From NCBI GenBank assembly GCA_043797205.1, contig JAZDQB010000028.1:4144-68143 (forward strand): a DNA stretch of 64,000 bases, written 5' to 3'. The notes beneath the pieces are model-generated. The model was not told the origin of the DNA. It saw only the letters and a program-made list of their open reading frames with translations, and did no database searches. Shown piece after piece: positions 5,216 to 26,784 of this stretch. Position numbers and translations under genes: made by a program. The stretch comes from Candidatus Woesearchaeota archaeon (GTDB lineage Archaea; Nanobdellota; Nanobdellia; Woesearchaeales; GW2011-AR9). Position 1 is the stretch's first letter. The number at the start of each line of letters is the position of its first letter.

Positions 5216-5305
5216 GCCTCTGTAGCTTAACGGTGGAGCGACTGCTTCGTATATACTTAATAAAGAAAGAGCAGTAGGCTGAGGGTTCAAATCCCTCCAG
5301 AGGCT
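5216..5305 (+). tRNA. tRNA-Thr(CGU) with an 18-nt intron at the canonical 37/38 position
   Basis: Cloverleaf read by eye: acceptor GCCTCTG/CAGAGGC, D arm GCTT-AACGGTG-GAGC, anticodon stem ACTGC/GCAGT with loop TTCGTA[TATACTTAATAAAGAAAG]A, T arm GAGGG-TTCAAAT-CCCTC, discriminator T. A T-run follows. Confidence 0.8.
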
Positions 5306-14790: not shown

Positions 14791-16254
14791 TTATTTCCAG
14801 TAAACTCCCAGAACACCCATAATCCCCATATCTTTTTGGGTATCTACTCTGAATTCTGGACCGATTCTTATACTCCATTTGTCACCCTTGCTAACATAAC
14901 CGGTAGTGACTCCTGTCGCAAATTCTCCCACAAAGTCATAATCGGTTTTAGAAACATTATTGGATTTTCCAGCCACAGTAGTAGTCCTTTCTAGAGTAGT
15001 TCTCTTAGCTGCTCCACCTGCTTTAAAGTCAAAATCAAGGTATCCTTTAGACACCGCTCGAACTTTAAGTACTGCACCCGCGCCCACTAAGCGATCGATA
15101 GTTTTAGCCTCTTCAGTTTCTTGAACTGCAAAACCTAAATCATCTGTAGTTTTACTGTCGGCTTTACGGTGATTATAACCACCATTAGCGTATCCACCTA
15201 AACGAACTACACCGTTTTCATCTAAAGCACTGGTTACTTGCACTTCTACTTCTACTCCAACGGCACTAGCTCCATTTCCAAAAGCATACACCGCCTTAGC
15301 GATAGCGTCAACCTGTATTGGTTGCTTTACCGGCTGAACCGGCTCCTTATAATTGCAGCCATGTTCTTTCAAGAAATCGATAGCTGTTTTGAAATCGCTT
15401 ACTGCTTTTTCATACTTATCGTTCTTATCTTTCAAAGCAGCGCCTTGTTCTGGACAAGCCGGAACAGCTTCTGTGTATTTTAAAAGTTCTCTTCCTACCG
15501 GAACTTTTCCCTCTTGAGCCGGAACTTTGTCTAGACATTCTTTTAATCCTTTAGTAGCAGTATCGCGAGTATCGCGAGCATTTCTAACATCAGTAAGCAT
15601 ACCTTTCAAGCGAGCATAATCTTCTTTGCAATTATCTCCGCCTAAGGAAACAAAGAAAGTTTCTAAGTCAGAAAGCTTAGCATCAGCTAATGCTTTTTCT
15701 AAAGGAACTCCTTTTCCGCCAGCATTATCTAAACGATCAGTAGCTGCTTTCAAATCGTCAACAGTAGCAAAAGGTTTGGCCTTGGTGGCATCATAACAAT
15801 GAGTGTTAGCTCCAGTACAATAGCCGTCTACTCTTTCAGTTAATCCAAAAGCACCAGCTAAATTATCGTCTAAACAAGTACCATGTTTATCAAATTGAGA
15901 AAGACAGGAAGGTTTTCCCGCAATTGGTTTCTGATCCGGACAGGTAAAGGTGACCACATCATCGCTGCCTAAGGTAGGTAAAGAATATTTTGCACCAGGA
16001 GTACAAGGGATACAATTTTTCTTTCCTGGAACACAGACTTCCAGGTTGACAGTCCCAATTTTATATACCGGCTTAATGCAAGTTCTATCAGCAGAAGTCA
16101 GTGCCTCTAAAGCTGCAGGAGTTAGAGTATCTACTCCCTCTAGAACACTTTCTTGAGGAGCAGGTGTACAAACACGAGTTTGAGCTACAGCAGTTCCGCC
16201 ATAAGCCAAAGTTGCACCAAGAAATAATCCGCTAACCAAAGTTCTTAATCTCAT
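14791..16254 (-). CDS. secreted Cys-rich hypothetical protein
   Basis: Signal peptide MRLRTLVSGLFLGATLAYGGTAVA. Many Cys in the N-terminal half. C-terminus ends in an aromatic residue (...GVLGVYWK). Confidence 0.55.
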   Translation of the reverse strand: MRLRTLVSGLFLGATLAYGGTAVAQTRVCTPAPQESVLEGVDTLTPAALEALTSADRTCIKPVYKIGTVNLEVCVPGKKNCIPCTPGAKYSLPTLGSDDVVTFTCPDQKPIAGKPSCLSQFDKHGTCLDDNLAGAFGLTERVDGYCTGANTHCYDATKAKPFATVDDLKAATDRLDNAGGKGVPLEKALADAKLSDLETFFVSLGGDNCKEDYARLKGMLTDVRNARDTRDTATKGLKECLDKVPAQEGKVPVGRELLKYTEAVPACPEQGAALKDKNDKYEKAVSDFKTAIDFLKEHGCNYKEPVQPVKQPIQVDAIAKAVYAFGNGASAVGVEVEVQVTSALDENGVVRLGGYANGGYNHRKADSKTTDDLGFAVQETEEAKTIDRLVGAGAVLKVRAVSKGYLDFDFKAGGAAKRTTLERTTTVAGKSNNVSKTDYDFVGEFATGVTTGYVSKGDKWSIRIGPEFRVDTQKDMGIMGVLGVYWK

Positions 16255-16367
16255 TTTTTATATACCTCCATTAAACAGGAATTTTTGTAATACTTCAGAA
16301 CATCTATACCAATACTACTCCAAAGTGAGCATTTATTTATAAATCTTTTGTATTCAACCCGCAAAAA

Positions 16368-17558
16368 TTAAAACAAACGATACATTTCGTAAACTATTCC
16401 TAAAACAAAAATTAAAATAAGTAAAATCCCTAGAAGAGTAAGTTTGGGTAAAGAATATTCTGGAACTCGCTCTCCTTTTTGCTTTGCTTTCCAATAGGTC
16501 AACACTGTAACAATTCCACTTAATCCCCCGGTAAGAGCCCCCACAATTCCCAAAATGGTAATAAAAGAAGTTAAATTCAATATCGTTATCAATAAAGGAA
16601 GAGAGAAAGTAAACAACAATGCCCAACGATGTTTAATTCCATAATCATATTCATAAATTTGCAATAAGACCATGCTTAAAGCCAAGAAAGAAGTAAACAT
16701 AGTCAATATCGCTAAAATATTCGCAAAAATTCCTAACAGAGGATGAGAATAGATGCTTAAAGCAATAGTAGCAATACGTTCGTTTGGCTGCAATAAATTA
16801 AAATTTTGTACTCCCACTAGACCGACCACAAGCACAGCAAACAGAGCATAAAGGATAATTGGAATAATTGAACCTACTAGAATGGCTACTTTCATTTTTT
16901 TCTTTTCTCGCCCCAATTCTTCCGAGATTTCAGGAATGGCTGCAAAGCCCATGTAAGCAAATAAGATTACCCCGTACGGAAGAAAAACAAAACCCCAAGA
17001 AGCAACATTATAATAATTAGTATTAATTTTGTTAATCGAAAAAATTCCAATCGAAACAACGGTGAGGATTAAAAATGAAACTAAAATCAGTTCTGCTTTT
17101 CCCGTCGCTTTCATCCCTAAGTAAACAATAATGAAACCAATTAAAAAGAAAAATAAAGAGTACATCAAAGGTGAACCCCACGAAAATAAAGAATAAAGCG
17201 TGGCTCCTTCCCCAATCAAATAAGCAGTTAACGCACCATAAGTTCCAAAAATTACAGCCACACCCATGGCCAATTTTCCCCATCTGCCTAAATATTTTTC
17301 TGCATATCCCGCTAGTTGATGTTTAGTTTTAGTACGCAAAACAATCTCTCCCACAAACAGATTTAACAACAGAAAAGCTGCTCCCAATCCCAAAATCCAG
17401 AACAGTCCCAACAGAAATCCGCTTTTCGCTACCACATAAGGAATTCCCAAGATTCCTGCTCCAATAATCGTACCCATTAAAGTACAAATAGCAATAGCAA
17501 GACGATGTCGAGCAAAGAATCCCTTATTGTTAGACACTTCACCGCTTTTTTTGAACAT
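16368..17558 (-). CDS. amino acid permease (APC/HAAAP-type transporter)
   Basis: About 11 TM segments. GTIIGAGILGIPYVV resembles aromatic amino acid permease signatures. Confidence 0.65.
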   Translation of the reverse strand: MFKKSGEVSNNKGFFARHRLAIAICTLMGTIIGAGILGIPYVVAKSGFLLGLFWILGLGAAFLLLNLFVGEIVLRTKTKHQLAGYAEKYLGRWGKLAMGVAVIFGTYGALTAYLIGEGATLYSLFSWGSPLMYSLFFFLIGFIIVYLGMKATGKAELILVSFLILTVVSIGIFSINKINTNYYNVASWGFVFLPYGVILFAYMGFAAIPEISEELGREKKKMKVAILVGSIIPIILYALFAVLVVGLVGVQNFNLLQPNERIATIALSIYSHPLLGIFANILAILTMFTSFLALSMVLLQIYEYDYGIKHRWALLFTFSLPLLITILNLTSFITILGIVGALTGGLSGIVTVLTYWKAKQKGERVPEYSLPKLTLLGILLILIFVLGIVYEMYRLF

Positions 17559-17699
17559 CTTCTTCAGAATACATTTTGGATTTATATAGCTTTCTTTGAA
17601 GTAAAATAAACACTATTATGCTTATTTGCGCAAGGTTTAAATAGGTCAAAAGAATACTTAACTTAGCACGTTTAGATTGTCAAAAGGGGGGTGAGTAGC

Positions 17700-17873
17700 A
17701 TGATCTATGAAGAAGATTATTGTGAGCTATTTGAAGAGGAGCTAGCTTTAGGCAGCGGAGAGAAAACTGCCAAATATTGCGAACTGTGCGAACTGCAAAG
17801 AGCTAACGAGAAGATGGTGACGGAAGTAATGGGAGTAGACATGAAAGACGTCAAAAACAAGATGTTAAAATAA
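17700..17873 (+). CDS. small hypothetical Cys-containing protein
   Basis: G-rich SD (GGGGGTGA) upstream of the ATG. 57 aa with CxxxxxxxxxxxxxxC..C. Weak. Confidence 0.3.
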   Translation: MIYEEDYCELFEEELALGSGEKTAKYCELCELQRANEKMVTEVMGVDMKDVKNKMLK

Positions 17874-17900
17874 TTTTTGTTTTTTTATTTCTTAGTATTT

Positions 17901-18968
17901 TTATTTTAGTGATCTATTTATTTCAATAGTAGAAATATCGTGCGGAAATGTCTTTTCGTATTTATCAATCACTTTTTGTCTTAAAATATAAGTATTGTAA
18001 TGGTGAGCGTACGCCAACCATCCTTCAAATACAGCATAAATTTGGTCGTAGTAAATTTTATTTAGCTCGAATTCTTCTTGCAATAAGAATATCTTCCGTT
18101 CCAGTTTTGGTACGTTTCCTTTTTTTAATAAGCGATGGAATGGGAAAATACGCGCACCTAAAAAAGTTATTCCTTGTTTGATAGAACGAATAGATGTTTT
18201 GTGTGGATGCAAGTGTAATTTTAAGTTAATAGTTAAGAAATTACTGATTTCTTGTCGATAAACTCGGAGCTTATCCTTATTGTTATCTAAAATTACAAAA
18301 TCATCTACGTAACGCAAGTAATATCTAATTTTTAATTTCCTTTTGATAAATTGATCCAGCTCATTCAAGTACACGTTCGCTAAGAATTGGGAAGTTAAGT
18401 TGCCCAAAGGCATTCCTTTATCAAAAGAATGGTTTCTTAATATTTTTCTAATTAACCACATCACTTTTTTATCTTTGATCTTTTTTTCAAGAATACGAAT
18501 TAAGATCGAATGATTTACTTCTTCGAAATAATGCTTTATATCTGCCTTTAACACGAATGTGTTTATGATATGGTTATTAGAAACTATCCTTGAAAAGGAT
18601 TCAAATCTTTTTATCGCTTTAAGAGTACCTTTTCCCTTCCGGTTGGCATAAGAATCATAAATGAAAGAAGTTTCAAAAATAGGTTCAATAAGATTACACA
18701 AAGCGTGATGTATCACTCTATCCCGAAAATGAGCTTTACTAATCTTTCTGGTTTTGGGATCGCGTACAATAAAGGTTTGCAATGGTTTTGGTTGATAAGC
18801 GTGTAAGAGCAGTTCTGTTCTAAGCAAAGAAAGATTATTTTGTAAATCCTTCTCAAATTCCAATACATAAGGCTTTTGCGTTTTATGTTTTCTCGCTTTC
18901 TTGTAAGCAAGATATAAATTATCTTCGCTGCATAATTTATCCCATAAATTACGATAAGTCTTCATGAA
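17901..18968 (-). CDS. DGR reverse transcriptase
   Basis: RT motifs include YVDDFVIL (YxDD) and LGNLTSQ, the DGR-type motif-4 signature I/LGxxxSQ. It lies immediately downstream of the TR. The track ORF extends to 19073 only because the TR is read in frame; the true start is probably MKTYRNLW. Confidence 0.85.
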   Translation of the reverse strand, partial: FMKTYRNLWDKLCSEDNLYLAYKKARKHKTQKPYVLEFEKDLQNNLSLLRTELLLHAYQPKPLQTFIVRDPKTRKISKAHFRDRVIHHALCNLIEPIFETSFIYDSYANRKGKGTLKAIKRFESFSRIVSNNHIINTFVLKADIKHYFEEVNHSILIRILEKKIKDKKVMWLIRKILRNHSFDKGMPLGNLTSQFLANVYLNELDQFIKRKLKIRYYLRYVDDFVILDNNKDKLRVYRQEISNFLTINLKLHLHPHKTSIRSIKQGITFLGARIFPFHRLLKKGNVPKLERKIFLLQEEFELNKIYYDQIYAVFEGWLAYAHHYNTYILRQKVIDKYEKTFPHDISTIEINRSLK

Positions 18969-18991
18969 CAAAAATCCTAGCCCAGCCAAGG

Positions 18992-19082
18992 TTATTCCGA
19001 GAAAACGGGCATTGTTGTTGAGATTGTTGTTGCCATTAAGGTTGTTGTTATGGTTGTTGCCCAAGACCAGCAAGCGCCCGCC
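18992..19082 (-). repeat. DGR template repeat (TR), ~91 nt
   Basis: Coding-strand sequence GCGGGCGCTTGCTGGTCTTGGGC(AAC AAC CAT AAC AAC AAC CTT AAT GGC AAC AAC AAT CTC AAC AAC AAT)GCCCGTTTTCTCGG. Twelve AAY codons. Identical to the VR except at adenines. Coordinates +/-2 nt. Confidence 0.85.
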
Positions 19083-19280
19083 TCTGTGTAGCTCTTTTAT
19101 CGTTATGCCACTGCTGCTTCGGTCTTTCCTTGCGTACTAGAGGTCGCAGCTGTATTTATCCTATTAGAACGTGTCTAATCGAAAGATTTTATGATGAGTC
19201 GCCTCAATCGTGATGAAAGAGCATGTAACCTTAGTATTGGCGGCATAACCGCTGTGGCTAAGATGAAGAAAAGTAAAGAA

Positions 19281-20087
19281 TTATCCTTTATATTGTTTTC
19301 TCAAATCACGACGTACTGCAGCTTCGTATTGCTTACGAACTGCTTCAGGAACGAATCTTTGTGAAGAAGCAAAAACCGTATTTAAGACCGTTTCTAAACT
19401 AGGAACAGTTCCTTTTTGCACTTCGCGCCCTGCGGGCGCACTCTCACCTACGACGCCTATCCGACGTACCCCGAGAAAACGGGCATTGCCGTTGAGAACG
19501 TAGTCGCCAACAAGGTTGCTGCCATGGCCGTAGCCCAAGACCAGCAAGCGCCCGCGAGGTTCTTCCGCCAGATCATCGCTATGCCAAATCCCAATATTGT
19601 CTCCATAAACTTTACGATGTTTAGCTAAATATCTCTTGGCAATATCTTCTCCACCTAAAAAAGGAATGGTTTGGGGATGCTCTAAAGCCGCATCAACAGA
19701 AATAACTTCAGAAGTAGATCTCTTCAAAACATCATAATCAACTTTGAAAACTTTACCATCGTCAATACGACCAGCTAAAGCATCAAATTCTTCTTGAGGA
19801 AAAGGTCCGGCACCATTTCGATGATGTTCTCGAGCATATTTTAGTTGTTCTGAATCATTCCAAGAAGTTTGGTCCTGAACGTAAAGAACGATCTTGCTGC
19901 CCCCTTTAGTAGTTCCCGTAATTCTTAAACTAGGAGTAGTCCACCAATTGGTAAACAAGTAGCTGTCATTCTTAGCTTTGATTCTTTTTTCAGCCAGTTC
20001 GGGCATATAAACAGCATCGTGAGCAACTTGACAAGCACGCAGAGCTTCTTCCATTATAGCATTGTAAAAAGGTTGATTTTTATTCAT
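19281..20087 (-). CDS. DGR target protein (variable protein), fold unknown
   Basis: 268-aa ORF containing the VR at about residues 178-207 (...GRLLVLGYGHGSNLVGDYVLNGNARFLGV...). No signal peptide. Confidence 0.8.
   Translation of the reverse strand: MNKNQPFYNAIMEEALRACQVAHDAVYMPELAEKRIKAKNDSYLFTNWWTTPSLRITGTTKGGSKIVLYVQDQTSWNDSEQLKYAREHHRNGAGPFPQEEFDALAGRIDDGKVFKVDYDVLKRSTSEVISVDAALEHPQTIPFLGGEDIAKRYLAKHRKVYGDNIGIWHSDDLAEEPRGRLLVLGYGHGSNLVGDYVLNGNARFLGVRRIGVVGESAPAGREVQKGTVPSLETVLNTVFASSQRFVPEAVRKQYEAAVRRDLRKQYKG
19425..19439 (-). other. GC-rich hairpin ~27 nt downstream of the VR 3' end (candidate DGR target-recognition hairpin)
   Basis: GCGCCC-GCA-GGGCGC on the coding strand (6-bp GC stem, 3-nt loop), in the position where DGR VR-proximal hairpin/cruciform elements are found. 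Confidence 0.5.
19466..19555 (-). repeat. DGR variable repeat (VR)
   Basis: 90-nt match to the TR with 16 mismatches. Every mismatch is at a TR adenine (AAC->TAC, GGC, GGC, AGC; AAT->GTT; AAC->GAC, TAC; AAT->GTT; AAC->GGC; GGA->GGG; ATA->GTA). Confidence 0.85.
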
Positions 20088-20312
20088 TGTTTCACCGAAG
20101 CTAACAAAAAGGGAGGTAATATTTAAATGTTTTGCTACTTTAAAGTTGTAATCCAGAAAGGAGCTGTTGGGAAAAAGCCACTACCCACTGGTCACAAGAA
20201 ATAAGAAAACTATCTTATTTCTGTGCAGAAATGAAGAGTTCCCCTTCATTTCTTGCAAGTCCGGCTAAGGTATATAAACCACCTCTTCTTTAAGCTTAAT
20301 CAGGTGGTTGAA

Positions 20313-20705
20313 ATGGAAAACGCTTTAGCCGTATTTGAAGGTAAGAAAATTAGAAAAACTTGGCATAATAATGAATGGTGGTTTGTAATCGAAGATGTAG
20401 TTCAAGCTTTGACCGATTCTAATGACCCTAAGCAGTATATCAATAAAATGAGACAAAGAGATGAAATTTTGTCTCAAGGGTGGGTACAAATTGTACATAC
20501 CTTTTTGGTAGATACTTCTGGTGGTAAGCAGAATATGAATTGTTCTAATACAGAAGGATTATTTCGTATAATCCAGTCTATTCCTTCTATAAAAGTTGAA
20601 CCTTTCAAATTATGGTTAGCTAAAGTGGGTTATGAACGTGTTCAAGAGATTCAGAATCCGGAATTAGCTCAAGATAAAGTTAAACGATATCCATTATTTT
20701 GTTAA
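20313..20705 (+). CDS. Bro-N domain protein (phage/virus antirepressor-like)
   Basis: ALAVFEGKKIRKTWHNNEWWFVIEDVVQAL...NTEGLFRIIQSIPSIKVEPFKLWLAKVGYERV matches the Bro-N architecture. SD AGGTGGT lies before MENALAV. Confidence 0.65.
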   Translation: MENALAVFEGKKIRKTWHNNEWWFVIEDVVQALTDSNDPKQYINKMRQRDEILSQGWVQIVHTFLVDTSGGKQNMNCSNTEGLFRIIQSIPSIKVEPFKLWLAKVGYERVQEIQNPELAQDKVKRYPLFC

Positions 20706-20870
20706 TTACAACTAGAAAAAAGAGGTAAGGTCAGAACTCTTAACAAAAACTTTTCCCTTTGAACAAGGTCGTCAGACTCCTACCTAAAAGTTTTTTGTGA
20801 GTTCTGCCAAACTACCTCCTTTTCCGAATACTCTAGGCTTTAATGCTTGAAAAGCTTAGAGGTGAAATAA

Positions 20871-21503
20871 ATGGAAAATAAATTAAAATTAGCAGAAATC
20901 GTTGGAATAATGCTTGGTGACGGATGTTTGTATAAAGAAAAGCGACGTAATCGTTATCAAACAACTATTTGTTTTCATAAAAAAGAAACAGATTACTTAA
21001 GTCATGTTAAGATACTATTTGAAGATTATTTTAAATACAAATTTTACGTAACTGAAATAGCGCATGAAATGTTGCTTAGAAACGGTAGTTTAGTAGTAGG
21101 AGAAAAGTTAATCAGCTTTGGATTATATCCTGGAAGTAAGATTGATAACAAAGTAGTAATCCCTTCTTGGATATTTAGTAATAAAGAATTCATTAAAAGA
21201 ACAGTGAGAGGACTTTTTGATACGGATGGATGCGTTTACAAGAAATATGATAGATATGCTCAGATTGTCTTTAAATTTGGATGCAAAGAAACTACTAACT
21301 CTTTAAGAGAAGCTATAATTATTTTGGGTTTTAATCCAACTAAAACCGAGAAGGGATATAATAAAGCGAAGCACACCTTTTTTCATAAATTCTATCTATC
21401 CAGACAAGGTGAAATTAAGAAGTTCTTTCAAAAGATAGAACCAAAAAATCCAAAGCATGTTAAAAGGTATGAGAAAATAAGAGGTGGGGACGCCGCGATT
21501 TGA
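20871..21503 (+). CDS. free-standing LAGLIDADG homing endonuclease (double-motif)
   Basis: Two LAGLIDADG motifs: IVGIMLGDGCL and VRGLFDTDGCV. SD AGAGGTGA upstream. Confidence 0.8.
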   Translation: MENKLKLAEIVGIMLGDGCLYKEKRRNRYQTTICFHKKETDYLSHVKILFEDYFKYKFYVTEIAHEMLLRNGSLVVGEKLISFGLYPGSKIDNKVVIPSWIFSNKEFIKRTVRGLFDTDGCVYKKYDRYAQIVFKFGCKETTNSLREAIIILGFNPTKTEKGYNKAKHTFFHKFYLSRQGEIKKFFQKIEPKNPKHVKRYEKIRGGDAAI

Positions 21504-21659
21504 ACGCGGATCCGAAGCTAGCTTCAGGAAAGTTTTGTCATCGCCGAAGCTCAACTCTCCAATTCTGGAGGCTCCTATTTTGGTCAGTGACTTTTAAATC
21601 ACTTCTAGCCAAGATGCACCCAGATGCCGCAAGGCAATGTGGATTATACTACGTCCCCA
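21485..21659 (-). tRNA. tRNA-like element: candidate intron-containing tRNA (tentatively anticodon CCA/Trp, at least 2 introns), or a tRNA-derived remnant
   Basis: Minus strand: 5' GGGGACG-TA... and 3' ...CCGCG-TTCAAAT-CGCGG-CGTCCCC-A-CC give a perfect 7-bp acceptor and T arm. A possible anticodon arm GGAGC-CTCCAG[45-nt intron]A-GCTTC fits. The D-arm region only folds if a further ~50-nt intron is assumed. Confidence 0.4.
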
Positions 21660-21713
21660 CAATCTACAAAACAAGAGAATTGTTTATTAAGTTTTTGCTC
21701 TTTTTACTCAAAA

Positions 21714-22802
21714 ATGATCGAATTAGACGGATCTCATGGAGAAGGCGGCGGTGCCCTAGTTCGAGTAGCTCTTGCTCTCAGCACCCTCACCGAACAAGAA
21801 TTTAAAGTAACCAACATCCGTGCCAACCGCCCCGAACCGGGATTAAAAGCACAACATCTGGAAGCGATTAACGCTCTGAAACAGATCTGTGATGCCGAAA
21901 CTAATGAGATTAAGATTGGCACTACAGAATTATATTTCAAACCAGGAAAGATTAAACGCGGAATTTATGAAATAGATATCGGTACCGCCGGCAGCATCAG
22001 CTTAGTATTACAAGCATTAATTCTACCCTGCATGTTCGCTCCGGGAAAAGTGACTTTAAAGATTAAAGGAGGAACTTGCGGTAAATGGCAAGCTTCCGTT
22101 TATTACTTACAAAATATTTTACTTCCCCATCTGCAGAAATTTGTCGATAAGATTGAATTAAAGATCTTCAAGCCCGGATATTATCCGCAAGGAGGAGGAG
22201 AAGTGCAACTGGAAATTACTCCAAGATTTAACATTCGTAAATACCAGTATGTAGAAGATTTCCTGAAAGAATTGAAAGTGCCACGGATTAAATTATTAGA
22301 AGCAGATAAATTAGAGCAAATTCGTGGAGTGGTCAATGTTTCTTCAGAACTGCAAGAAAAAGAGGTAGGTGAAAGAATTAAGAAAACAGCAGAGATGGCT
22401 CTAAGAAAATATGATGTTCCGATAAATGTCCGCTCCGAATACGCCAAAACTCTTAATGTTGGTGGAGAGATAGTATTATGGGCTTTATTCAGTGAAAAAG
22501 GTAAAGTTGATTCGGATAATCAAGTAATTATAGGAGCAGATGCTTTAGTAGAAAAGAACAAGAGTTCTGAACAAGTGGGAAAGGAAGCGACAGAAGCCTT
22601 AAGCAAAGAAATTAATAAAAAGAATGTGACTGACCATTACTTATTAGACCAATTAATTCCTTTTATGGCCTTGCTTCCCGGATCAGAAGTCCAAACCACC
22701 GAAATTAGCGAGCATGCTTATACTAATATGCATGTATGCAAACAATTCGTTCCCATCACCTTTAAAGTGGTTAAGGGAAAGATTAAGGTGGAATTAAGAT
22801 AG
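21714..22802 (+). CDS. rtcA: RNA 3'-terminal phosphate cyclase
   Basis: MIELDGSHGEGGGALVRVALALSTLTEQEFKVTNIRANRPEPGLKAQH matches the RtcA N-terminal signature. Start moved to the internal Met. Confidence 0.85.
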   Translation: MIELDGSHGEGGGALVRVALALSTLTEQEFKVTNIRANRPEPGLKAQHLEAINALKQICDAETNEIKIGTTELYFKPGKIKRGIYEIDIGTAGSISLVLQALILPCMFAPGKVTLKIKGGTCGKWQASVYYLQNILLPHLQKFVDKIELKIFKPGYYPQGGGEVQLEITPRFNIRKYQYVEDFLKELKVPRIKLLEADKLEQIRGVVNVSSELQEKEVGERIKKTAEMALRKYDVPINVRSEYAKTLNVGGEIVLWALFSEKGKVDSDNQVIIGADALVEKNKSSEQVGKEATEALSKEINKKNVTDHYLLDQLIPFMALLPGSEVQTTEISEHAYTNMHVCKQFVPITFKVVKGKIKVELR

Positions 22803-22848
22803 AATTTCTCGTAACCTTTATAAAATAGATAAGGTTTAAATCTAAACT

Positions 22849-23019
22849 ATGACTGAAAAAACCTGTATCTCTTGTAAAAAGAGAGTCGTTAACAAAGTAG
22901 GTAGTGTTACTATTAAATGTCCCAAATGCAACAAATACGAATTGGTGCGTTGTGAGAATTGCCGGGCTAACGGAACCAAGTACACTTGCCCTAACTGCGA
23001 TTTTGTGGGACCAAATTAA
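22849..23019 (+). CDS. small four-CxxC zinc-finger protein (HVO_2753/COG2888-like)
   Basis: MTEKTCISCKKR...KCPKCNKY...CENCRAN...CPNCDF; 56 aa, directly upstream of EF-1beta, as is common in archaea. Confidence 0.6.
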   Translation: MTEKTCISCKKRVVNKVGSVTIKCPKCNKYELVRCENCRANGTKYTCPNCDFVGPN

Positions 23020-23299
23020 AATGGCTAAAGCAATAATCACTTTTCGACTGATGCCGGAATCTCCCGAAACCGATCGCAAAGAGATTGCCGAAACGGCTCT
23101 GAAGATTGCTAAAGAGAATAAAGCTATCGGACAGATGCAAAGTAAAGAAGATCCCATCGGCTTCGGTATCGTCGCTGTTCTTGTTTTAGCTATGTATGAT
23201 GTGGACAGTTCTGATTTTGAAGCCATTGCCGCCCAGATGAAAGAGATTAAAGGAGTAGAATCAGCCGAAGTTGCTAAGATGGATTTAGCGCTGGGTTAG
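23020..23299 (+). CDS. ef1b: translation elongation factor 1-beta (aEF-1beta)
   Basis: MAKAIITFRLMPESPETD...IGFGIVAVLV...VESAEVAKMDL; about 93 aa, typical aEF-1beta. Confidence 0.8.
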
Positions 23300-23310
23300 T
23301 AAAACAGAGA

Positions 23311-24255
23311 TCATAATTTAAGAAGCGTTCTGCGACAATTTTTACAAAGAGGATTATCTTTTGGATGCAAACACCATAACCAAAAATCAGGTTGATACAA
23401 TAATACAAATCCATTATTACGAGCTAACTCAGATGCCCGGGTAGATGTCATGGCTATAGCTAGAGCACTTCCTCGTAAGCATTCATCTTTTAGATTTTGT
23501 ATTAATGAAGTTCCCAAATTAGATTTTTTCTTCCAGAACCTTACACTTAAACCAATATTATTTATATCAAAAGTAGGACAGGGTTGGTTCAAGAAACCAC
23601 CCTTAGGTTTGAAAGTTACTTGCATTCCCGCAAGAACCTCTTCGTCTACACCAATAGCAATTACTTCTCTATCATAATTAGATTCATATCCTCCGCCAAC
23701 TGCCCCTTCGCGAAAGATTTGGATTAATTGTTTTTTTTCTTCAACCGTTTCAACATTTTTAATTCGAAATGGAGGTTTGATTTCTGCAATTTCTCGATAA
23801 ATAATGGAAACACATTCAACTTTAGACTCTTGCAAACAAAACAATAATTGATCGACAAGAGTAATTTCTTTAGAAAGAAGGGTTGTTCTTACTAACCGAT
23901 TCTCATTAAATAATTGGTTTTGTGAGGATAATAAATTATAATAGGCAAAACATAATCTTCTGAAACCAAGTAATTTTGTAGCTTTTTGTTCCGCAAATGA
24001 ATTTAGAAGCTTCTTTTCTTTACTGCTCAAAACAGAAATAGAATCAAAAAGTTTAGATTCACTCACTAGTTTCACTGATTTAAAATATTTTAGTTGATTC
24101 CTTATGATTAGAAGTACATTTAATCTGCTATTCTTCTTATTGGTTGAATACAAAACCTCTTTCTTTGACGCTTTTGTGGATAAGTCGTAAATTACTGTCT
24201 CTAATTTTCTAAAAATCTCTCTTAATTGGGTTTCTTTCTCTAACATTTCGGGCAT
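23311..24255 (-). CDS. hypothetical protein (third gene downstream of the HEPN-like/MNT pair)
   Basis: ORF only. GGGYESNYDREVIAIGVDEE block. Cys-containing C-terminus. Confidence 0.45.
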   Translation of the reverse strand: MPEMLEKETQLREIFRKLETVIYDLSTKASKKEVLYSTNKKNSRLNVLLIIRNQLKYFKSVKLVSESKLFDSISVLSSKEKKLLNSFAEQKATKLLGFRRLCFAYYNLLSSQNQLFNENRLVRTTLLSKEITLVDQLLFCLQESKVECVSIIYREIAEIKPPFRIKNVETVEEKKQLIQIFREGAVGGGYESNYDREVIAIGVDEEVLAGMQVTFKPKGGFLNQPCPTFDINNIGLSVRFWKKKSNLGTSLIQNLKDECLRGSALAIAMTSTRASELARNNGFVLLYQPDFWLWCLHPKDNPLCKNCRRTLLKL

Positions 24256-24335
24256 TATTCAAGAAGGATTATTATTTATATAAATATTACCTAAATAAAG
24301 TTAACGGAAGTAGCCAAGATGAATCTGACACTTGG

Positions 24336-24959
24336 TTAAAAAGAATCAGAAAAAATCTCATTAATCTTATAAATTACTTTATTCTTATTTAAGAATGTCA
24401 TGATTTCCTGGCGATGCTCCATCGGCACCAAAAAAATGGCTTTACCTAATTTTTTTCCGCCTGATTTTTCTATTAGACCTTTGCCAATGTAAATTTTCTT
24501 GCCAACTTTTTGGGTATAACCATAAAGTTTTCTCCAAATCGTCATTTGTTGGTTATTTTTCATCTTTGACACATCAATATTAACTAGTAAATAATATTTA
24601 ATGTTAGGTGGAATCTCTTGATATTTACCATAAAGAAGAATACCTGAACTAATCACTTCCCGATGCAAAGACCACTTTTGTAGCTCCCCCACTTTCAAGG
24701 AAATCTCATTCCTTATCCCCTTTAATCTCCAAATTTTTCCTGCTTGAGAACTCTTAAAGAGAGCCAGATTCTTTTCAACTTCCTTTTCTAAAGTTTCATC
24801 AGCATCAACAAATAAGTCAATATCACTCTCAGCATTAAAATCCCCCCTAGCTACAGACCCAAAGAGAATAATCTTCCTTATTTCCGGCCCAATCTTACTA
24901 TCTAATAAAAAAGAAGAGAAATTGAGTGCATATCCAATTAAATGGTTTTTATTCAACAT
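24336..24959 (-). CDS. nucleotidyltransferase (MNT/pol-beta superfamily) with C-terminal extension
   Basis: ILFGSVARGDFNAESDIDLFVDADE is the GS...DxD minimal nucleotidyltransferase motif. Overlaps the upstream ORF by 11 nt. Confidence 0.7.
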   Translation of the reverse strand: MLNKNHLIGYALNFSSFLLDSKIGPEIRKIILFGSVARGDFNAESDIDLFVDADETLEKEVEKNLALFKSSQAGKIWRLKGIRNEISLKVGELQKWSLHREVISSGILLYGKYQEIPPNIKYYLLVNIDVSKMKNNQQMTIWRKLYGYTQKVGKKIYIGKGLIEKSGGKKLGKAIFLVPMEHRQEIMTFLNKNKVIYKINEIFSDSF

Positions 24960-25353
24960 TGAGCATACCTTTTAGAATATTTTCTAAAGTTTCAAACAAA
25001 TGCAAAGCTTCTTCTACTCTCTCTATTGGTCGAGGAGCCCCATAAGAAAGTTTTTCACAAATAATCTCTAACTGAATCATTAAGCTGACAATCTCTTCCT
25101 TCCTTTCAAACTCAGGTAAGCGCCGGAAAACAGTATCGGACTTAAACCAAGCATGATTTAACTGGAACCCTTCTTCTACTTTATTTTGCTGATGCAAATA
25201 AGCAGAGAGTAATTCCGTGATCGCTTTAGAAGCATTATCTCCGATAATTCGCTGCGAGTTCTCTATCCCTCTCACCTCTACCGCCCACTTAAAGATGGTT
25301 TCTTTTCTCTCTTCAAAAGCCTGCAGGTGCATTTCTATTCGCATAACGTTCAT
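24949..25353 (-). CDS. HEPN-like / nucleotidyltransferase substrate-binding-like partner protein (putative)
   Basis: 134-aa helical protein translationally coupled upstream of the MNT gene. A canonical Rx4-6H motif is not obvious. Confidence 0.45.
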   Translation of the reverse strand: MNVMRIEMHLQAFEERKETIFKWAVEVRGIENSQRIIGDNASKAITELLSAYLHQQNKVEEGFQLNHAWFKSDTVFRRLPEFERKEEIVSLMIQLEIICEKLSYGAPRPIERVEEALHLFETLENILKGMLNVE

Positions 25354-25380
25354 TTATGTTAGTAACTATATAAATCTTTT

Positions 25381-25393
25381 GTAAGTAACTTAC
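25381..25393. promoter_or_regulatory. inverted repeat GTAAGT-A-ACTTAC (candidate operator) in the promoter of the HEPN-like/MNT operon
   Basis: Perfect 6+6 inverted repeat, followed by the related direct repeats ACTTACATAAAA / AATTACATAAAA, 30-70 nt upstream of the 24949..25353 start. Confidence 0.3.
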
Positions 25394-25460
25394 ATAAAAA
25401 TATGTTAGTTAATTACATAAAATATTGCTGTTTTAAAAAGTAAATTGAGTTTCTACCGCT

Positions 25461-26225
25461 CTAATCCTTCGCTATTTTCCACATCATTTGAAAGTATTCT
25501 AAAAAGCTTTGCGCAACTTCTTCAGATTTAATATAAATAGAAGTAATTTTCTTACCAAATACAATAATTACAGTCCTATCGCGATAGATATTTATCGCTA
25601 CAGGAGAAGTATGCTCAATATACTTGTTCTTAGTTCCAGGAAATTGTTTGTTAGAGTACAAATCTTCAGTCGTCTTTCTCTGTCTCCTATTAAAGAGCAT
25701 ATGCGTCCTAATTTTCTTTTGCTCACGCAAAATATGAATTTTCCGAAAAAAAGACCATACTGCTTCTTCATCCATTCCTTTAGTTCCACCGATGACATAA
25801 CAAACTTCACCAGATTTAAGCATCTCTACCTGTTCACGAAAGATTATCTCTAATCCTTTCATTCCTAAAAGAATTTCTACTTCCTGCTCCTCTTTAGAAG
25901 AATTAAACAAAGACAAGAGCCCAGGGATGGCTAATTTAGCTTGTTTCTCTAAGGAAGAGATATCTTCTTTTTTCTTTTCCAAATAGTTTAACAATTGGTG
26001 AGGATTGGTAGGCTTAAAATTTTTTATCTTATTCTCGATAAAAGTAGAAGTCAATCCTTTCTCCTGTAATTTCTCTAAAACTTCATAGACTTTTGAACCT
26101 GAAATTCCCGATTCTTTCACGATGTTATTACGAGTCGAAATTCCTAAACTAAGCAGAGCTAAATAGACCTTCTTTTCTGATTCAGTTAATCCTATTTCTT
26201 TCAAGAGTGGTTCAAAGTCTTTCAT
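25461..26225 (-). CDS. TrmB family transcriptional regulator
   Basis: N-terminal HTH LTESEKKVYLALLSLGISTRNNIVKESGISGSKVYEVLEKLQEKGL is typical of TrmB. Confidence 0.7.
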   Translation of the reverse strand: MKDFEPLLKEIGLTESEKKVYLALLSLGISTRNNIVKESGISGSKVYEVLEKLQEKGLTSTFIENKIKNFKPTNPHQLLNYLEKKKEDISSLEKQAKLAIPGLLSLFNSSKEEQEVEILLGMKGLEIIFREQVEMLKSGEVCYVIGGTKGMDEEAVWSFFRKIHILREQKKIRTHMLFNRRQRKTTEDLYSNKQFPGTKNKYIEHTSPVAINIYRDRTVIIVFGKKITSIYIKSEEVAQSFLEYFQMMWKIAKD

Positions 26226-26280
26226 AGGTACCCCTCAGGGGGAGCTAGTATTTAAATATTGCTTTGTTGCTGAAGAAGAG

Positions 26281-26784
26281 ATGGAAAACTTAGAAAAAAA
26301 AGTAAAAGAAAGCTGGATTAAAAGATCTTATCAAAAAGAATGGGTAACGATGGGGAACAACGTAGTTGCGGCTGCCACATCTATAGGTATTACTGCTGTA
26401 GTAACTCATCTCGCTAAAAAATATTTTAATGTTGAATCTGATGAAGCTTTAACCTTGACGGCCACAGTAACAGATTTATCCAGTTATTATATTACTTTAT
26501 TCGGACAATTTCTTTATAGAGATAGAGAAGAATTAAAAGATAGGGAAGATAAACTAAGTTTAAGAAAAGTTGGAAGAAAATTAGGGGAATATGGCAGTTT
26601 CTTTGGGGTTTTGACCGCAGCATATACTGGAGCAAGAGTAGTGGCACAATATGCTTTACAAAAATTAGAAGTAGACCCTGTTGCCGCATCAGTAATAACG
26701 CAGGTAGGCCTTACTGGAATATTTACCGGAATAATGCCCATGCTCCGTTATGGAATTAAGAATTTGTGGTCTTCTGGAGTTTAA
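26281..26784 (+). CDS. hypothetical protein
   Basis: ORF only, divergent from trmB. Confidence 0.4.
   Translation: MENLEKKVKESWIKRSYQKEWVTMGNNVVAAATSIGITAVVTHLAKKYFNVESDEALTLTATVTDLSSYYITLFGQFLYRDREELKDREDKLSLRKVGRKLGEYGSFFGVLTAAYTGARVVAQYALQKLEVDPVAASVITQVGLTGIFTGIMPMLRYGIKNLWSSGV

Follow-up and report, generated by a model that had tools for sequence, protein, structure and literature searches.

Results

Gene content of the locus

The DNA analysed here, referred to as the window, is a 64,000-nt stretch of a Woesearchaeota genome that represents 64 kb of the 71.6-kb contig JAZDQB010000028.1. It carries a diversity-generating retroelement (DGR) next to a Bro-N open reading frame (ORF), a LAGLIDADG endonuclease gene and a minus-strand RNA gene, and a first-pass annotation of the sequence had taken these three neighbors as hallmarks of an integrated viral or mobile island on which the DGR would lie. 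The features of the locus, in which RT stands for reverse transcriptase, TR for template repeat and VR for variable repeat, are the following.

17691-17873, plus strand: orf60, a short ORF rich in Cys that forms the native left border of the variable slot
17901-18965, minus strand: DGR RT, 354 aa from ATG 18965 (Pfam RVT_1, E 4.5e-24)
18997-19081, minus strand: DGR TR, 85 nt, 84% identical to the VR
19083-19263, minus strand: RT-16 RNA motif (Rfam RF03019), directly upstream of the TR (cmscan, 53.7 bits versus a gathering score of 50, full-length model)
19281-20087, minus strand: DGR target gene for a 268-aa AvpA-type variable protein with a C-type-lectin fold, with the VR at 19471-19555
20088-20312: intergenic promoter-like region with the TATA-like GGTATATAAA at ~20267-20278, split by a 61-nt palindromic insert at 20195-20255
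20313-20705, plus strand: Bro-N ORF, the N-terminal 130 aa of a ~280-aa family (Pfam PF02498)
20715-20870: leader or spacer 5' of the LAGLIDADG gene, with a possible long imperfect hairpin (minimum free energy of -44 to -49 kcal/mol)
20871-21503, plus strand: free-standing double-motif LAGLIDADG endonuclease gene, 210 aa (Pfam LAGLIDADG_3, E 4.5e-09, and LAGLIDADG_2, E 1.2e-05)
21658-21485, minus strand: tRNA-Trp(CCA) gene, 174 nt, giving a mature tRNA of 74 nt after loss of three introns (exon comparison over 12 orthologous loci)
21614-21643, minus strand: tRNA-Trp intron 1, 30 nt, in the D-loop (precise indel versus loci L084/L085)
21581-21605, minus strand: tRNA-Trp intron 2, about 25 nt, at the D-loop/D-stem junction, with edges ambiguous by a few nt
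21519-21563, minus strand: tRNA-Trp intron 3, 45 nt, at the canonical anticodon-loop position (D' TTGA, C' GATGA and D CTGA-like boxes)
21714-22802, plus strand: RtcA (RNA 3'-phosphate cyclase), the conserved right flank (Pfam RTC, E 1.6e-76)

Two of the three neighbors are what they had been taken for. The Bro-N ORF matches PF02498 with an E value of 1.4e-13 (51.7 bits versus a gathering score of 25.6), and the 210-aa LAGLIDADG ORF carries both motifs, has Pfam matches and lies outside any intron or intein. The third, described as a tRNA-like element, does overlap the stop of the endonuclease gene with its 3' end, by 19 nt, but it is more than tRNA-like, given that it is a genuine tRNA-Trp(CCA) gene with three introns.

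Synteny and allelic states

The order permease(-), LAGLIDADG(+), tRNA-Trp(-), RtcA(+) is kept in at least seven Woesearchaeota species without a DGR (loci L001/L004, L003/L005, L006, L008, L010 and L012, and partly L013 and a contig of the Joint Genome Institute, JGI). In these loci an amino-acid permease lies upstream, and the zinc finger, EF-1beta and Trm1 genes lie beyond RtcA; RtcA itself is syntenic in L001-L012, L169 and L173. None of the loci named for the permease-to-RtcA order carries an RT, an AvpA-like target or a Bro-N gene. Identities at the syntenic loci are 51-57% for LAGLIDADG, 52-66% for RtcA, 55-62% for Trm1 and 40-56% for the permease, which puts the endonuclease at the level of its housekeeping neighbors. 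On the chromosome, LAGLIDADG and tRNA-Trp stay together as a conserved pair whether or not a DGR is there, and their presence in species without one refutes that half of the first-pass annotation in which they marked an island.

Closer relatives show the locus in four allelic states.

S1, L173/L174: orf60 homologue, spacer (equivalent to window 20715-20870), LAGLIDADG, tRNA-Trp, RtcA
S2, L171/L172: permease, promoter-like segment (equivalent to window 20170-20194 plus 20256-20278), LAGLIDADG, tRNA-Trp
S3, the window and L084-L087: permease, orf60, RT, TR, RT-16 RNA, target, promoter, Bro-N(1-130), spacer, LAGLIDADG, tRNA-Trp
S4, L169: same DGR, with a full-length 282-aa Bro-N running into the tRNA-Trp 3' end, without spacer and LAGLIDADG

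When compared with S1, the window contains ~2.9 kb of extra DNA, roughly 17880-20710, that comprises the RT, TR, RT-16 RNA, target and Bro-N. This block is absent from L171-L174 and from L001-L013. In these relatives, the 17.7-21.7 kb block that had been proposed as an island is missing in its DGR and Bro-N part, whereas its LAGLIDADG and tRNA part is conserved. The DNA on both sides of the insertion has counterparts in loci without a DGR. A homologue of orf60 (59% at the amino acid level) stands upstream of LAGLIDADG in L173/L174, and a 75% homologue is found in L169. Upstream of LAGLIDADG in L173/L174, two loci with neither DGR nor Bro-N, there is a region homologous to the spacer at 20715-20870; the spacer is absent from L169 and L171. 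In L171, the promoter-like segments 20170-20194 and 20256-20278 adjoin each other immediately upstream of LAGLIDADG. In more distant relatives, the same slot is occupied by DUF192, by HIT and DUF7670, or by SOD and DUF7557.

The S4 locus is close to the window (84% identity for RtcA and 90% for TrmB). Relative to it, the window has 801 bp, made up of the Bro-N tail, spacer and LAGLIDADG, in place of the 453 bp that encode the C-terminal half of Bro-N, and the right breakpoint between the two lies about 10 nt outside the tRNA 3' end. The Bro-N of L169 ends in ...KIISGDAAI and the LAGLIDADG protein in ...KIRGGDAAI. It is probable that the window lineage lost the C-terminal half of Bro-N. Re-invasion of an L169-like allele by LAGLIDADG through homing was also considered; the LAGLIDADG-like terminal codons kept in L169 make independent deletions from an ancestor with both Bro-N and LAGLIDADG at least as likely.

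At synonymous sites the cassette is about twice as diverged as its flanks, with dS values of 0.53-0.67 versus 0.21-0.34. The ratio of nonsynonymous to synonymous divergence (dN/dS) of RtcA is 0.03.

The identity between the window (16165-26767) and L085 is mosaic. It is ~82-97% at 16.2-21.4 kb, falls to 66% over the tRNA gene, is 98-100% from ~22.0 to 26.0 kb (with a dip to ~95-97% at 22.6-23.0 kb), and then drops to 77-86% at 26.0-26.8 kb. This pattern indicates recent recombination tracts, one edge of which lies just to the right of tRNA-Trp.

The tRNA-Trp gene and its introns

The exons of the minus-strand RNA gene provide a 7-bp acceptor stem (GGGGACG/CGTCCCC), a D-arm with GG in the D-loop, an anticodon arm GGAGC-CTCCAGA-GCTTC, a T-arm CCGCG-TTCAAAT-CGCGG and the discriminator A. 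When spliced in silico, the orthologues are called tRNA-Trp(CCA) by ARAGORN at default settings in 10 out of 10 cases. The anticodon stem shows a compensatory change from A:T to G:C at position 29:41 (GGAGC/GCTTC in the window versus GGGGC/GCCTC in L085). On genomic DNA, the locus is missed by ARAGORN, both in default and in intron mode, and by Rfam RF00005 at its gathering threshold, and a permissive Rfam scan gives only a weak match to a tmRNA end at ~21.5 kb (E 0.005). This is to be expected, given that the gene has three introns, two of which are at non-canonical positions. Standard tools overlook in these genomes a tRNA-Trp gene that is probably essential.

Two other identities for this RNA were discarded. 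Calls of tRNA-Arg(GCG/CCT), obtained with a lowered ARAGORN threshold and with a brute-force single-deletion scan, are artefacts, because the orthologues show the CCA anticodon arm and three introns. A non-tRNA RNA with a tRNA-like end (of the signal recognition particle, RNase P or tmRNA kind) was dropped because the exons are collinear over 12 loci.

The intron content of this tRNA is fluid. Intron 1 is present in the window and in L169 and precisely absent in L084/L085, which are ~92% identical to the window overall; intron 2 is absent in L006, L008, L012, L013 and L056 and variable elsewhere; intron 3 is absent in L007, and other species have T-loop introns. By reading of the sequence, the 3' GTGC/GTAC of intron 1 can pair with the exon GTAT beside both junctions in six orthologues, in a manner that resembles a bulge-helix-bulge helix, and intron 3 forms helices with both exons. 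Introns of the non-canonical kind in the D-arm and T-arm of tRNAs are known in Crenarchaeota and Nanoarchaeota (PMC4090602). The tRNA-Trp orthologues share such extra introns with these multi-intron archaeal tRNAs and differ from them in that intron content varies here even among strains that are ~92% identical.

Intron 3 has the sequence TTGGAG, which pairs with the anticodon loop in such a way that the fifth nucleotide upstream of the D' box faces C34 (N+5). The D' box is TTGA in the window and ATGA or CTGA in orthologues, and the C' box GATGA and the D box CTGA are present; a search of this intron for a clear box C and for a convincing U39 guide found neither. A euryarchaeal tRNA-Trp intron with a box C/D guide is known (Clouet d'Orval 2001; Singh 2004, summarised in PMC11408192). 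Intron 3 resembles it in its canonical position, its C/D-type boxes and a putative guide that would select C34 by the N+5 rule, and differs in the missing clear box C and U39 guide and in its host, which is a Woesearchaeote.

Many species keep RtcA beside a multi-intron tRNA-Trp. In the window, the longest RtcA ORF, which opens at ATG 21624, overlaps the 5' part of the tRNA-Trp gene (21624-21713). The true start is likely ATG 21714, as judged from the sequence. The conserved N-terminus MIELDGSHGEGGG begins there, indicating that gene callers over-extend RtcA both here and in L169.

The LAGLIDADG endonuclease gene

The LAGLIDADG protein carries motif 1 (IVGIMLGDG, with LGDG at 15-18) and motif 2 (VRGLFDTDG, with FDTDG at 116-120) in one chain. 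Across 30 homologues, 35 residues are invariant, including G16, D17, G18, D117 and G120, and D119 is conserved in at least 90%. An AlphaFold2 model (pLDDT 95.2, pTM 0.91) has the alpha-beta-beta-alpha-beta-beta-alpha double-domain saddle of the family. The top Foldseek matches of the model are I-Tsp061I, the endonuclease domain of PI-PfuI and I-DmoI, with a probability of 1.00, E values from 1e-9 to 1e-7 and TM-scores of 0.65-0.76, while sequence similarity to known enzymes is marginal (profile E about 1e-3). With these three enzymes the protein shares the double-motif monomer fold, a length of ~200 aa and the acidic residues that end both motifs. They are encoded inside rRNA introns or inteins, whereas the window gene stands alone and abuts a tRNA gene end.

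Homologues with 50-81% identity occur once per genome in metagenome-assembled genomes of Nano- and Woesearchaeota, and the gene has a dN/dS of 0.14. In all syntenic loci, its last codons are the reverse complement of the tRNA acceptor and T-arm, and the C-terminus GDAGI(RTQI) is conserved. Exact-sequence look-ups with the LAGLIDADG and Bro-N proteins of the window returned no record.

Association of distant homologues with tRNA genes

A genome scan for relatives of the LAGLIDADG protein returned 68 further, distant homologues (29-40% identity; loci L015-L083) from bacteria of the candidate phyla radiation (CPR), from Bathyarchaeia and from other DPANN archaea; in most of these loci the ORF ends at ~8.5 kb. 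A same-strand tRNA starts between -38 and +9 nt of the stop codon in 59 of the 68 homologues, versus 32 out of 948 background ORFs, the background consisting of the remaining ORFs of these loci that reach 100 aa. The partner is tRNA-Tyr(GTA) in 39 loci, tRNA-Ser(CGA) in 12, tRNA-Gln in 4 and another tRNA in 4. Clusters of the proteins by identity follow the type of tRNA, with Tyr in 39/40 members of one cluster and Trp in 11/12 of another.

The geometry of the association differs between groups. In Woesearchaeota, the 3' end of LAGLIDADG meets the 3' end of tRNA-Trp in a convergent layout, while in CPR bacteria and other archaea it meets the 5' end of tRNA-Tyr, Ser or Gln on the same strand. 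The fact that the ORF end meets a tRNA boundary in both co-directional and convergent layouts argues for a relationship at the level of DNA.

A literature search, incomplete in its coverage, found no description of tRNA-flanking LAGLIDADG genes, and a recent survey of LAGLIDADG genes in CPR bacteria reports insertions in rRNA only, with no mention of tRNA (PMC11270868). The nearest known analogues are free-standing homing endonucleases of phages, for example SegB of phage T4, which lies in a tRNA gene cluster, and "collaborative homing" (PMC10448857; Brok-Volchanskaya 2008 cited there; Barth et al. 2023). SegB and the free-standing homing endonuclease genes found by essential genes share with the present lineage the placement of a free-standing gene among or against tRNA genes. 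Genes of the SegB type mark boundaries of genetic exchange and, likewise, the identity of the window to L085 goes from ~90% to ~100% immediately to the right of the tRNA/RtcA start. SegB is a GIY-YIG enzyme of a phage, whereas here the enzymes are of the LAGLIDADG type, on chromosomes of CPR bacterial and DPANN archaeal cells, where the ORF end is fused with the tRNA boundary and every clade keeps to a single type of tRNA.

The diversity-generating retroelement

The RT also matches phrog_1423 (E 6e-117) and NCBIfam group_II_RT_mat (E 5.5e-47, below the cut-off of the model); the longer RT ORF that is listed reads through the TR. Homologues number more than 7,600 at E<=1e-20; identity is ~58-63% for the best 120 listed, and those that carry an organism name come from Woesearchaeota or Nanoarchaeota. 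The dN/dS of the RT versus L085 is 0.09. Every mismatch between TR and VR falls at a TR adenine on the coding (minus) strand, which is a T on the plus strand. The RT-16 RNA may be part of the TR transcript and be used for priming.

A profile built from five orthologues of the target matches AvpA (PDB 5IOO) over its full length (E 6.1e-67, residues 3-264). AvpA is a crystallised variable protein of Nanoarchaeota whose fold is of the C-type lectin (CLec) kind (PMC5006420). This homology supports a ligand-binding role for the target, in line with the earlier suggestion that the variable 268-aa protein could be a receptor-binding or host-interaction protein.

Contigs L084 and L085 come from replicate groundwater samples. 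They are 99.5-100% identical per 200-nt window over ~10.6 kb, with the exception of the VR window, where identity is 91%, and their TR is identical. The fact that the two differ almost only in the VR, while the TR is fixed, is direct evidence of an active DGR in this population.

The ~60 residues of the target that follow the VR (19281-19470) have, between the window and L085, a dN of 0.67 and a dN/dS of 1.2, while the N-terminal 177 residues have a dN of 0.07. The divergence of this tail suggests, from sequence, an allele swap or relaxed constraint.

Related RTs are found at other chromosomal places, a 72% homologue beside SecY and a ribosomal protein operon and a 59% homologue beside Trm1 and aIF5B, and at neither of these two loci was a Bro-N called nearby (at the SecY locus, on the DNA recovered). 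DGRs have been described as prevalent in cellular DPANN genomes (PMC6349945). With the Nanoarchaeota AvpA DGR (Paul et al. 2015; Handa et al. 2016, PDB 5IOO), the window element shares the RT, the adenine-specific TR/VR pair, a ~260-aa AvpA-like CLec protein and a cellular DPANN genome. It differs in its minus-strand order of target, RT-16 RNA, TR and RT, and in the adjoining Bro-N and tRNA-flanking endonuclease. The window DGR is a typical cellular AvpA-type DPANN element that sits in a variable chromosomal slot.

The Bro-N ORF

The mechanical Bro-N ORF opens at TTG 20253; the start is likely ATG 20313, which gives 130 aa. A 100% identical protein is annotated by NCBI as 'Bro-N domain-containing protein [Candidatus Woesearchaeota archaeon]', and the RT ORF likewise has a 100% identical NCBI protein from a Candidatus Woesearchaeota metagenome-assembled genome. 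The 4,268 homologues come overwhelmingly from cellular DPANN contigs, in varied contexts, and have a modal full length of 275-280 aa. In the window, the homology ends at ~20690 (residue ~125-130), so that the two-part architecture of ~280 aa that characterises the subfamily is not found. No remnant of the C-terminal half was recovered by tblastn downstream of 20705, and two long gapped matches that reach into the LAGLIDADG ORF are spurious. When compared with known Bro-N/DinD-like proteins (PF02498), the N-terminal domain matches Pfam Bro-N and PHROG anti-repressor families, and the window protein differs in having only the first ~125 of ~280 residues and in its close family, which is mostly cellular DPANN. 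The dN/dS of 0.056, relative to a strain that is ~92% identical, indicates that the shortened protein is still constrained.

The Bro-N of the window is 77-81% identical to Bro-N proteins in unrelated contexts versus 58% to the syntenic copy in L169. At the 80 other Bro-N loci that were inspected (65-81% identical), no RT or LAGLIDADG gene was found, indicating that Bro-N is no regular companion of DGRs; DinD-like and Fic genes neighbor other Bro-N loci, as in variable regions.

L096, L098 and L110 have related copies of the 61-nt palindrome that splits the region upstream of Bro-N close to their Bro-N genes, as does L171 downstream of tRNA-Trp. This palindrome may be a small repeat that resembles a terminator or a miniature inverted-repeat transposable element.

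Search for viral and integrative features

A Pfam scan of ~57 ORFs spread over the 64 kb gave only cellular families or no match. The window encodes ABCE1, aIF5B, Cbf5, Trm1, aEF-1beta, an HVO_2753-type zinc finger, ribosomal protein S3Ae, RIO kinase, LonB, ScpA, an S-layer protein and XPF, and housekeeping genes flank the block directly on both sides. Neither Pfam nor PHROG revealed an integrase or recombinase, capsid, portal or terminase among the ~57 ORFs, which bears out the first-pass remark that no integrase or capsid gene is visible in the window, and no integrase was found in the related loci L084, L085 and L169.

The other signs expected of an island are missing as well. The window holds no att-like repeat of the tRNA, given that no second copy of its 3' 18-mer or 29-mer was found with up to 3 mismatches and that the longest stray tRNA match is 12 nt. 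The GC content of the block is 0.33-0.39 versus a range of 0.33-0.43 for the window, with no step. Pattern-based scans of IMG/VR, which detect close relatives only, returned no relative of the RT, a single Bro-N of 48% identity, and LAGLIDADG relatives of only 23-31%.

Discussion

Origin of the locus

The best explanation is that resident features of the chromosome and a single small cassette specific to the lineage together make up the locus, with no prophage, a reading to which a probability of roughly three in four can be given. The minus-strand RNA gene is the tRNA-Trp(CCA) of the cell, with three archaeal-type introns, one of them with a box C/D-like guide for C34. The LAGLIDADG gene is part of a lineage of double-motif endonuclease genes that stand alone and have their 3' end against or within a tRNA gene. 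It has been kept beside tRNA-Trp through many speciations, under purifying selection and with its catalytic Asp residues intact, yet can be lost, as in L169. The most likely mechanism is that the predicted homing endonuclease cuts the tRNA-gene boundary of alleles that lack the gene, which would then be copied in by break repair. Located between the upstream gene and the endonuclease/tRNA pair, the slot took up the AvpA-type DGR together with Bro-N in the lineage of the window; the C-terminal half of Bro-N probably went missing later, where this gene meets the endonuclease leader.

Repeated breaks and repair at the tRNA boundary agree with the variability of the slot, with the breakpoints located at the tRNA end and with the mosaic pattern of identity to L085, which is ~90% left of ~21.9 kb and ~100% from 22.0 to 26.0 kb. 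The slot is read here as lying beside a recombination hot spot, and the LAGLIDADG gene as a putative member of a tRNA-end-specific homing-endonuclease lineage; from these data we infer its endonuclease activity, its target site and its role in the variability of the slot. A more far-reaching proposal is tentative, with the odds somewhat against it. It holds that these genes form a so far undescribed lineage of LAGLIDADG homing endonucleases, free-standing, active and directed at tRNA ends, with a clade-specific tRNA (Trp in Woesearchaeota; Tyr, Ser and Gln in CPR bacteria and other archaea), and that they persist in streamlined CPR and DPANN genomes by repeated homing, the breaks making tRNA flanks hot spots for the gain, truncation and loss of cargo such as the DGR/Bro-N cassette. 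Each component of the locus belongs to a known kind, and the lineage locked to tRNA ends looks like a new form within its kind.

Several observations weigh against this explanation of the locus. The family of the Bro-N protein has phage relatives (phrog_15286, E 1.4e-28, and anti-repressor Ant families, E 1e-9 to 1e-6), and the search for an integrase spans 64 kb of the 71.6-kb contig, so that one may lie elsewhere in the genome. With respect to the endonuclease, a clean 'empty site' target allele was not recovered, and the tRNA-Trp junction of L169, a close relative that lacks LAGLIDADG there, looks like a deletion. Because the Bro-N of L169 keeps LAGLIDADG-like terminal codons, that locus probably lost the endonuclease by simple deletion and not through homing, and more than one order of events could lie behind the four allelic states. 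The 80 loci that enter the tRNA-association count come from one pattern-based scan and may be phylogenetically clustered. Finally, the long synteny of LAGLIDADG and its purifying selection also fit a domesticated DNA-binding protein.

Domestication is the alternative that survives best, although it is unlikely. According to it, the LAGLIDADG protein is a host factor, either a DNA-binding regulator similar to WhiA or a factor that acts on the adjacent tRNA gene or its transcript. The gene is single-copy and syntenic across species whose housekeeping proteins are ~55% identical, WhiA is found among the structural neighbors of the model, and JGI names some of the homologues WhiA. Nonetheless, WhiA has lost its catalytic residues, whereas D17 and D117 are invariant and D119 nearly so in the present family. 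The protein has no extra helix-turn-helix domain, and the gene is dispensable in L169. Moreover, the orientation of the tRNA differs by clade while the ORF end is always at the tRNA boundary, which points to a relationship with a DNA site and not with a transcript.

It is less probable still that the DGR and Bro-N are what is left of an integrative element that had inserted at the tRNA-Trp 3' end and whose integrase and att sites have eroded, LAGLIDADG being unrelated to it. The position of the cassette downstream of the tRNA 3' end, the Bro-N of L169 that runs into this end, the higher dS of the cassette relative to its flanks, the greater closeness of the window Bro-N to copies in unrelated contexts than to its syntenic counterpart, and the DinD-like and Fic neighbors of other Bro-N genes would all suit such an origin. 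On the other hand, none of six related loci retains an integrase or a repeat, and LAGLIDADG separates the cassette from the tRNA in the window. The LAGLIDADG-like terminal codons at the L169 junction point to a deletion and not to an att junction. An RT is present at 0/80 other Bro-N loci, and the DGR beside SecY has no Bro-N called on the DNA recovered.

The island proposed by the first-pass annotation, in which DGR, Bro-N, LAGLIDADG and tRNA-like element are one integrated virus or mobile element and the variable protein is a viral receptor-binding protein, is very improbable: Bro-N is common in phage anti-repressors, as the PHROG matches show, viruses often carry homing endonucleases, the block is located 3' of a tRNA gene and the DGR and Bro-N are missing from relatives, but the proposal is largely refuted by the synteny of LAGLIDADG and tRNA without a DGR, and it is opposed by the lack of integrase, capsid, terminase, att repeat and GC break in the 64 kb, by the housekeeping genes that abut both sides, by the IMG/VR results and by the homology of the target to the cellular AvpA of Nanoarchaeota. 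What stands of it is a ~2.9-kb DGR and Bro-N block that is variable, lineage-specific and more diverged than its flanks at synonymous sites, and not a virus or a classical integrated island. Finding a DGR next to a Bro-N domain, a LAGLIDADG gene and a tRNA is not enough to call a virus.

The larger interest lies in a sizeable family of free-standing LAGLIDADG genes that is seemingly locked to tRNA-gene boundaries in CPR bacteria and DPANN archaea. If these enzymes cleave, the biology of homing endonucleases would reach from rRNA introns and inteins to the flanks of tRNA genes and into the smallest cellular genomes. They would also constitute a natural set of compact meganucleases whose conserved targets can be deduced from genomic context, and would offer a concrete mechanism for variable tRNA flanks even without integrases.

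Other features of the window and its relatives

At 24336-25353, the window has a nucleotidyltransferase gene (Pfam Polbeta/NTP_transf_2) and an adjacent 134-aa ORF without a Pfam match; by their arrangement, the two look like an MNT/HEPN-type pair. In L084/L085, the stretch before Trm1 carries an RHH-PIN pair (L084 14533-15182). The sole tRNA called in the window by default tools is a tRNA-Arg(TCG) at 5216-5305, which probably contains an intron or a long insertion, given that it is 90 nt long.

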